Source: Escherichia coli
GTDB taxonomy: Bacteria; Pseudomonadota; Gammaproteobacteria; Enterobacterales; Enterobacteriaceae
Assembly: GCF_045037415.1 (NCBI RefSeq)
Contig: NZ_CP173438.1
Direction: 5' to 3' (one strand)
Length of the DNA stretch: 64,000 bases
Both the position numbers and the translations under genes were made by a program. Below the pieces are notes generated by a model. The model saw only the letters and a program-made list of their open reading frames with translations, was not told the origin of the DNA and ran no database searches. The stretch's first letter is position 1, and the number at the start of each line of letters is the position of its first letter. Below, in pieces: positions 55,337 through 55,895 of the stretch.

Positions 55337-55763
55337 ATCGCACGTCTCTTCTCCTTGCGACACCGGCAGAACACCGGGCGCACATGGTCGGCAAGCGACG
55401 TCCCTGTAGCAAGGCAAACCATCGCTTCACGTGAGATGCTGAAAACGAAAGCTCATCCTTCTGCACTGGCGCACGTCGCCAGAAAGTATTGTTAATAAAG
55501 CGTAGTGAAACTTTTGCACAAAACAATACAAACTGTGTGGATTTATCTTTTAGCGATAAAAATGGACCTATTTTTCTTTTTGCCGGGTGGTGGGGATGTT
55601 TAGCCGGTTGCTAAACGAGTAAATAGAGAAGGAATTCATGGTGATGAAATGATCAATCTGCTGTTGTTTCACGCTATCAATGCACTTTTGGCTATTTTTC
55701 AGGCAAACAAACAAATTAGGGGTTTACACGCCGCATCGGGATGTTTATAGTGCGCGTCATTCC

Positions 55764-55851
55764 GGAAGTGTGGCCGAGCGGTTGAAGGCACCGGTCTTGA
55801 AAACCGGCGACCCGAAAGGGTTCCAGAGTTCGAATCTCTGCGCTTCCGCCA
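55764..55851 (+). tRNA. serT: tRNA-Ser (UGA anticodon), serT-type
   Basis: 88-nt GGAAGTGTGGCCGAGCGGTTGAAGG…GGTTCCAGAGTTCGAATCTCTGCGCTTCCGCCA; anticodon loop CTTGAAA; -10 TATAGT with GC-rich discriminator just upstream. Confidence 0.95.
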
Positions 55852-55859
55852 AATAAGAT

Positions 55860-55895
55860 AAGGGGTTAGCTAAATGCTAACCCCTTTTTCTTTTG
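55860..55895 (+). terminator. serT rho-independent terminator
   Basis: Stem aaggggttagc/gctaacccctt followed by TTTTTCTTTT. Confidence 0.8.

Follow-up and report, generated by a model that had tools for sequence, protein, structure and literature searches.

The DNA analysed here, which we refer to as the window, is a 64,000-nt stretch of an Escherichia coli genome (NCBI RefSeq assembly GCF_045037415.1, contig NZ_CP173438.1). Between hyaA and serT it contains a divergent intergenic region of 427 nt that houses two tiny overlapping ORFs. When used as a query, this intergenic region was 100% identical to that of strain SK1144 and was found in 5425 of 5426 complete genomes. No annotated feature occupies the hyaA-serT interval in the RefSeq record of K-12 MG1655 or in the other RefSeq records that were compared. 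Past the terminator-like hairpin that follows serT, the gene order is yccA, then tusE. The features of the locus, in order of position, are:

55336, minus strand: start codon of hyaA, the left border of the intergenic region
55628-55633, plus strand: GAAGGA, a Shine-Dalgarno (SD)-like hexamer 4 nt 5' of the mini-ORF ATG (sequence reading)
55638-55652, plus strand: 4-codon mini-ORF, ATG GTG ATG AAA TGA (sequence reading)
55640-55654, no strand assigned: putative Fis-type site III, GGTGATGAAATGATC, centre 55647, at about -111 from the predicted transcription start
55649-55750, plus strand: 33-codon ORF, judged a non-coding by-product (ORF scan)
55660-55674, no strand assigned: putative Fis-type site II, GCTGTTGTTTCACGC, centre 55667, at about -91
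55690-55704, no strand assigned: putative Fis-type site I, GGCTATTTTTCAGGC, centre 55697, at about -61, within the motif TTGGCTGTTTTTCAGGCAAACGAAC
55723-55728, plus strand: serT -35 hexamer, TTTACA, nearly invariant across species (promoter scan)
55746-55751, plus strand: serT -10 hexamer, TATAGT (promoter scan)
55752-55758, plus strand: G+C-rich discriminator, GCGCGTC, conserved (sequence reading)
55764-55851, plus strand: serT, tRNA-Ser(UGA) (ARAGORN; Rfam RF00005; RefSeq annotation serT)
55860-55886, plus strand: intrinsic terminator-like hairpin 3' of serT (terminator scan)

Note that the hyaA-proximal 240 nt of the region (window 55337-55575) are almost identical in E. coli and in two other Escherichia lineages, presumably reflecting a dense hya regulatory region, and that positions 55576-55640 are much less conserved than this hyaA-proximal part. 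In FXCREC035, ISApl1 (IS30-like) and a truncated rutD replace hya (L009 440-1709, corresponding to the window from 55554 leftwards); only 209 nt 5' of serT are kept, and these include the whole conserved promoter block described below. In E110019 and 118, remnants of an EspV secretion-protein pseudogene lie ~95 nt 3' of serT (L006 809-826 and L008 809-825), in keeping with a role of serT as a place where genomic islands integrate. In addition, FliA ChIP-seq (PMC4183435) identified a weak FliA site and motif inside serT, antisense and directed towards hyaA, that is listed as (serT)hyaA at coordinate 1030917 in an older K-12 numbering.

The sequence-only reading described GAAGGA, the mini-ORF and the 33-codon ORF, and all of the coordinates and sequences it gave for them are correct. 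The stop codon (TGA) of the mini-ORF and the start codon of the 33-codon ORF share an ATGA overlap, and SD-like sequences precede both starts in E. coli at a usable spacing (GAAGGA-N4-ATG and GGTGAT-N3-ATG). The longer ORF does end inside the serT promoter, as had been proposed; its stop codon TAG (55748-55750) falls within the -10 hexamer TATAGT, and the ORF ends 14 nt from the tRNA. The N-terminal half of the 33-residue peptide from E. coli is hydrophobic, with a best 19-residue Kyte-Doolittle window of 1.76. The SD-like sequences and this hydrophobic window speak for an Escherichia-specific small hydrophobic protein, that is, a young gene or proto-gene, encoded by the 33-codon ORF, with the 4-codon ORF loading ribosomes by way of the ATGA. 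In the light of the findings that follow, we regard such a protein as improbable.

ORFs of this length are common by chance in DNA of this composition. In particular, when the 427-nt intergenic region was shuffled 2000 times with its dinucleotide composition preserved, an ATG ORF of 33 codons or more occurred in 87% of the shuffles, and the longest ATG ORF had a median length of 50 codons. An ATG mini-ORF with a stop overlapping the start accompanied just ~5% of the chance ORFs of at least 30 codons. This pairing, a further point in favour of a small protein, is mildly unusual, yet unremarkable given the many features that were open to picking.

A simple consensus scan, which is not decisive, detected no sigma-70-like plus-strand promoter between hyaA and the serT promoter; there is therefore no obvious mRNA that would carry the ORFs. 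The 33-residue peptide had zero matches in Pfam and NCBIfam, and the tRNA was the sole Rfam match over the region. An exact look-up of the K-12 form of the peptide returned only a few sporadic 'hypothetical protein' calls made automatically, one of them a 56-residue version from strain LF82, and the protein cluster that holds the K-12 form is a heterogeneous mix. The K-12 RefSeq annotation, which includes validated small proteins, does not list the ORF. The peptide had no match in the PIRT-Seq and TRAINSPOTTER supplements (an absence of evidence only), and neither it nor its coordinates appeared among the entries listed in the portion consulted of the preprint table of Stringer et al. (plus strand only, with coordinates that differ from those of NC_000913.3).

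Within E. coli, both ORFs are intact, and GAAGGA is present, in all nine of the aligned strains. Five sites in the 33-codon ORF vary among these strains; four of the changes are synonymous and one exchanges Ile and Val, a proportion that, by codon position alone, we estimate at roughly p = 0.05. Intactness and synonymy both count towards a small protein, as does the fact that the 33-codon ORF is kept, with the same ATG and the same stop, in two further Escherichia lineages, one labelled E. coli SCPM-O-B-8794 but divergent (L011; yccA pS 0.25) and the other E. whittamii (L055). (The E. albertii locus, L010, was left out; it ends before serT.) The remaining features of these two lineages point the other way. 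Their peptides, of which the L011 version is MSKLLFFHAINTRLSVFQANKQIGGLHDASGCL, carry 9-10 amino-acid replacements, including the radical changes L13R and A28D, and pN/pS between Escherichia lineages is 0.64 in the ORF frame and likewise 0.64 in one shifted frame. The stop codon of the mini-ORF is lost in both (AAATGATC has become GAATGTCC or GAATGCGC), and the GAAGGA region is replaced by unrelated sequence beside a 23-nt indel. Moreover, the best 19-residue Kyte-Doolittle window drops to 0.69 and 1.02 in these two lineages and is 0.68 in Leclercia, so that the 33-residue peptide has no conserved membrane-spanning hydrophobic segment. The small membrane peptide that the sequence-only reading had kept in view could still be made in E. 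coli itself, but its hydrophobicity is not conserved even within Escherichia.

For a wider comparison across Enterobacterales, we used the yccA neighbourhoods of 80 species representatives, located serT in each neighbourhood where it was present, and anchored the alignment on the serT -10 hexamer. The ~135 nt 5' of this hexamer aligned without a gap across ~60 species of Enterobacteriaceae, Erwiniaceae and Pectobacteriaceae, with Escherichia, Citrobacter, Enterobacter, Leclercia, Kosakonia, Pantoea, Erwinia, Pectobacterium and Dickeya among the genera in the block. Across 58 distinct sequences, the mean column entropies at codon positions 1, 2 and 3 of the 33-codon ORF were 1.08, 0.89 and 0.95 (permutation p = 0.61); the ORF therefore has no excess of variability at third positions. 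Over all pairs, pN/pS was 0.90 in the ORF frame, as against 0.89 and 1.04 in the shifted frames, and 0.00-0.10 for the control gene yccA in the same species.

Neither the start codon nor the open frame is conserved in these relatives. Most Citrobacter and Enterobacter loci have a codon other than ATG (ACG, ATA or ATC) at the start: in Citrobacter it is mostly ACG, directly after TAA, with ATA at two loci, and in Enterobacter and Lelliottia it is ATG, ATA or ATC. In-frame stops interrupt the ORF in Shimwellia, Superficieibacter, Pseudescherichia sp. ESNIH1, Citrobacter sp. 18056, Tatumella and Brenneria, and likewise in Pectobacterium, Symbiopectobacterium, Serratia, Erwinia and several Pantoea (frame-broken loci include L032, L035, L037, L046, L052-L054, L056, L060, L063, L065, L071, L072 and L074-L076), and the block still aligns in the frame-broken genera. 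Versions of 33 codons that begin with ATG recur in C. werkmanii, two Leclercia, E. quasihormaechei, P. vulneris and one Pantoea. The check on conservation that had been suggested found the frame open in both of the additional Escherichia lineages and in a few genera beyond them, and disrupted in many genera. Note that disruption of the frame in close relatives is a misleading test at this locus, because promoter spacing keeps the frame without any coding function.

Taken as a candidate small protein, the 33-codon ORF has no conserved start or ribosome-binding site, no sign of purifying selection and no consistently open frame in relatives. Like the validated small membrane proteins of E. coli (at most 50 residues; Hemm, Storz), it would specify a short peptide with a hydrophobic N-terminal half behind an SD-like sequence; unlike them, it lacks a conserved start, a conserved hydrophobic segment and a coding pattern of substitution, and it also lacks a detected promoter, an annotation and a family model. 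It also resembles the chance intergenic ORFs of studies of 'pervasive translation' and proto-genes in E. coli, which are short, lineage-restricted, free of purifying selection, equipped with a chance SD and unannotated. It differs from these in that the DNA beneath it is highly conserved for a non-coding reason, and its frame therefore reaches much further than that of a neutral ORF would, mimicking the conservation of a gene.

The non-coding reason is apparent in the profile of information along the block, which tracks the anatomy of the serT promoter rather than codons. The conserved stretches are GGATGTTTATAGTGCGC, comprising the extended -10 and the discriminator (codons 31-33 of the ORF and beyond); CTTTACA, which contains the -35 (codons 25-27); and TTGGCTGTTTTTCAGGCAAACGAAC, the most conserved motif further upstream (about codons 14-21). 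The variable stretches are the 17-nt spacer and the interval between the -35 and the TTGGCTGTTTTTCAGGCAAACGAAC motif. In the promoter scan, the serT core promoter matched the consensus at 10 of 12 positions with a 17-nt spacer, and its -10 region, GATGTTTATAGTGCGC, is almost invariant across Enterobacterales. The promoter lies 12 nt from the 5' end of the mature tRNA, and the position of the -10 would place the transcription start at 55758 or 55759. The locus thus has what is expected of a stable-RNA core promoter, namely a sigma-70 promoter with a G+C-rich discriminator directly 5' of a tRNA.

That the 33-codon ORF stops so close to the tRNA might also suggest that the two ORFs act as upstream regulatory ORFs, carried by an extended serT precursor that starts at an unrecognised promoter further upstream, such that their translation would influence synthesis of tRNA-Ser. 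Some tRNAs are indeed co-transcribed with mRNAs. The consensus scan described above found no plus-strand promoter that would make such a precursor, serT owns a strong and conserved promoter that the ORF overlaps, genera that retain the complete block have conserved neither the start codon nor the frame, and the peptide has no serine-codon pattern or other visible sensor-like feature. We consider regulation of this kind scarcely credible.

Several Enterobacter, Pantoea, Tatumella and Mixta genomes carry tandem pairs of tRNA-Ser(UGA) genes (L022 154-241 and L026 151-238; L048, L050-L052, L061, L063, L065, L066, L068 and L070). In the two Enterobacter loci, a separate promoter (CTTTACA-17-TATAGT or TATATT) precedes the second copy and has different sequence upstream of it; in most of the Pantoea and Tatumella loci, the second copy follows the first and no promoter for it can be recognised.

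Binding by Fis is determined mainly by a G at -7, a C at +7 and a centre rich in A/T. Further upstream than the -35, no more than five G and three C columns reach 90% conservation across the 61 distinct sequences, and each of these three C columns lies exactly 14 nt 3' of a conserved G (under random placement, 0.11 such pairs are expected and P is ~1e-4 for three or more). The three 15-mers delimited in this way are the putative sites I, II and III. Both the G and the C are retained in 100% of the 61 distinct sequences at site I, in 98% at site II and, as positions 1 and 15, in 93% at site III. The degenerate Fis consensus, GNNYRNNWNNYRNNC, is matched by site I in the window and in 77% of the sequences. 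The A+T content of the central 7 bp is 80% at site II and 82% at site III, with a range of 77-82% over the three sites as against 60% for the block, and the centre-to-centre spacings of 30 and 20 bp put the sites in helical register, all of them 5' of about -40. The properties of the Fis consensus are thus present at all three putative sites, and we infer from them that the three conserved 15-mers may bind Fis and activate serT.

Site III spans most of the mini-ORF together with the ATG of the 33-codon ORF, and in other genera it reads GCTGAATAAACGGTC, GCTGATAAAATGGTC, GCTGGCAAAATCGCC or GCTGATTTAATGGTC. The ATG of the ORF recurs yet is unstable because an A/T-rich core beside G(G/R)TC yields ATG, ATA, ATC and ACG interchangeably. 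The five E. coli polymorphisms also have a place on this map. Position 55657 is in the linker between putative sites III and II; putative site II contains two, 55663 (its position 4, off-consensus in the window) and 55666 (its position 7, an N position); 55694 falls at position 5 of putative site I, where A and G both satisfy a consensus purine; and 55714 lies in the variable stretch 5' of the -35. A non-coding model therefore explains the five polymorphisms equally as well as synonymy does. We accordingly rejected the four synonymous changes of five as evidence of coding, given that no such bias exists between species and that the sites are degenerate positions of promoter elements.

In stable-RNA promoters such as rrnB P1, tyrT and thrU-tufB, the core promoter is preceded by several Fis sites that share one face of the helix. 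The serT promoter resembles these in its near-consensus -35 and -10, its 17-bp spacer and its G+C-rich discriminator, and in having three putative Fis-type 15-mers on one helical face. It further resembles Fis-dependent stable-RNA promoters in the A-rich DNA beside its -35, and its spacing is free of indels across the bacterial order. It departs from the classical stable-RNA promoters in that its proximal site is centred at about -61 rather than -71, about one helical turn closer, and from Fis-dependent stable-RNA promoters in that the interval from -59 to -38 is, on our reading of the sequence, a poor match to the UP-element consensus.

The orientation of serT differs between Escherichia and the rest of the sample. 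In the Escherichia loci where it was located (the window, K-12, L011 and L055), serT is on the same strand as yccA, and in every other sampled Enterobacterales locus with serT (~60 species) it is on the opposite strand. In Pantoea, Pectobacterium and Serratia, serT is directly divergent from yccA; in Citrobacter and Enterobacter, a 566-residue gene, from its sequence an OppA/MppA-type-looking binding protein, lies between the two. That the ~135-nt block travelled with the tRNA suggests that a small local inversion, or else a re-insertion, took place in the Escherichia lineage; its left junction is probably near 55600-55637, the site of the 23-nt Escherichia indel.

This arrangement bears on whether the block belongs to serT at all. 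Since serT in most genera is divergent from yccA or just 3' of the OppA-like gene, a neighbour could own the distal part of the block, and the 15-mers could have served the divergent promoter of that neighbour (yccA in most genera) or could bind a factor other than Fis, for which the centre of site I near -61 instead of the classical -71 offers some encouragement. Against a neighbour, the block moved with serT to a position beside hya in Escherichia and is still conserved, and is therefore tied to serT. Against another factor, the signature of G-N13-C around an A/T-rich core, phased on the helix, is Fis-specific, and Fis-dependent regulation of serine tRNA species was reportedly described by Emilsson and Nilsson in 1995. 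We judge a non-coding block of either of these other kinds to be unlikely, though less so than translation of the ORFs. Our literature search, which was confounded by the use of SERT for the serotonin transporter, found no published confirmation of Fis binding at serT; Gaal et al. 2016 mention serT solely as a chromosomal marker.

With the conservation pattern, the missing coding signal and the consensus matches demonstrated here in view, we put at roughly 87% the probability that both ORFs are untranslated chance by-products lying over the conserved upstream region of the serT promoter and its Fis-type sites. The chance ORF favoured by the sequence-only reading is supported by the absence of codon periodicity, a pN/pS of ~0.9, an unstable start, stops in relatives and the lack of an annotation or family. 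The description of the surroundings as AT-rich promoter DNA holds as far as the promoter is concerned; the region is not mere AT-rich filler, being strongly conserved and free of indels. The 33-codon frame would be built wholly of promoter parts, with its stop supplied by the TAG of the -10, its body by the -35 and the upstream motif, and its ATG by the A/T-rich centre of site III. Promoter function fixes the distances among the -10, the -35 and the upstream sites, which leaves no room for indels and so carries the reading frame along passively; this is also why some relatives have an open frame of the same length.

On this account of the ORFs as by-products, the DNA upstream of serT most likely functions as do the upstream activating regions of promoters for rRNA and other tRNAs. 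RNA polymerase would be aided by the A-rich DNA beside the -35 and by Fis dimers that occupy one face of the helix, and the target promoter, with its G+C-rich discriminator, would be subject to growth-rate and stringent control. A more speculative version, which we hold to be very improbable, is that the promoter DNA of this essential tRNA gene contains a hydrophobic 33-residue proto-gene that is translated at a low level through the two coupled starts, in E. coli or perhaps in the whole genus. Such a proto-gene would have been born inside a Fis-bound upstream activating region, with its frame guarded by promoter spacing and not by a function of its own.

Returning to the reading of both ORFs as by-products of the serT promoter, they are almost certainly not genes, and the promoter beneath them is of a well-known kind. 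The locus has little value as a gene candidate and modest value for the annotation of the serT promoter, to which it contributes a gap-free block of conservation and three putative Fis-type sites. More generally, an open ORF of the same length and with the same stop across several species is not on its own evidence of coding: a promoter architecture of -10, fixed spacer, -35 and phased activator sites precludes indels and can itself provide the stop codon.
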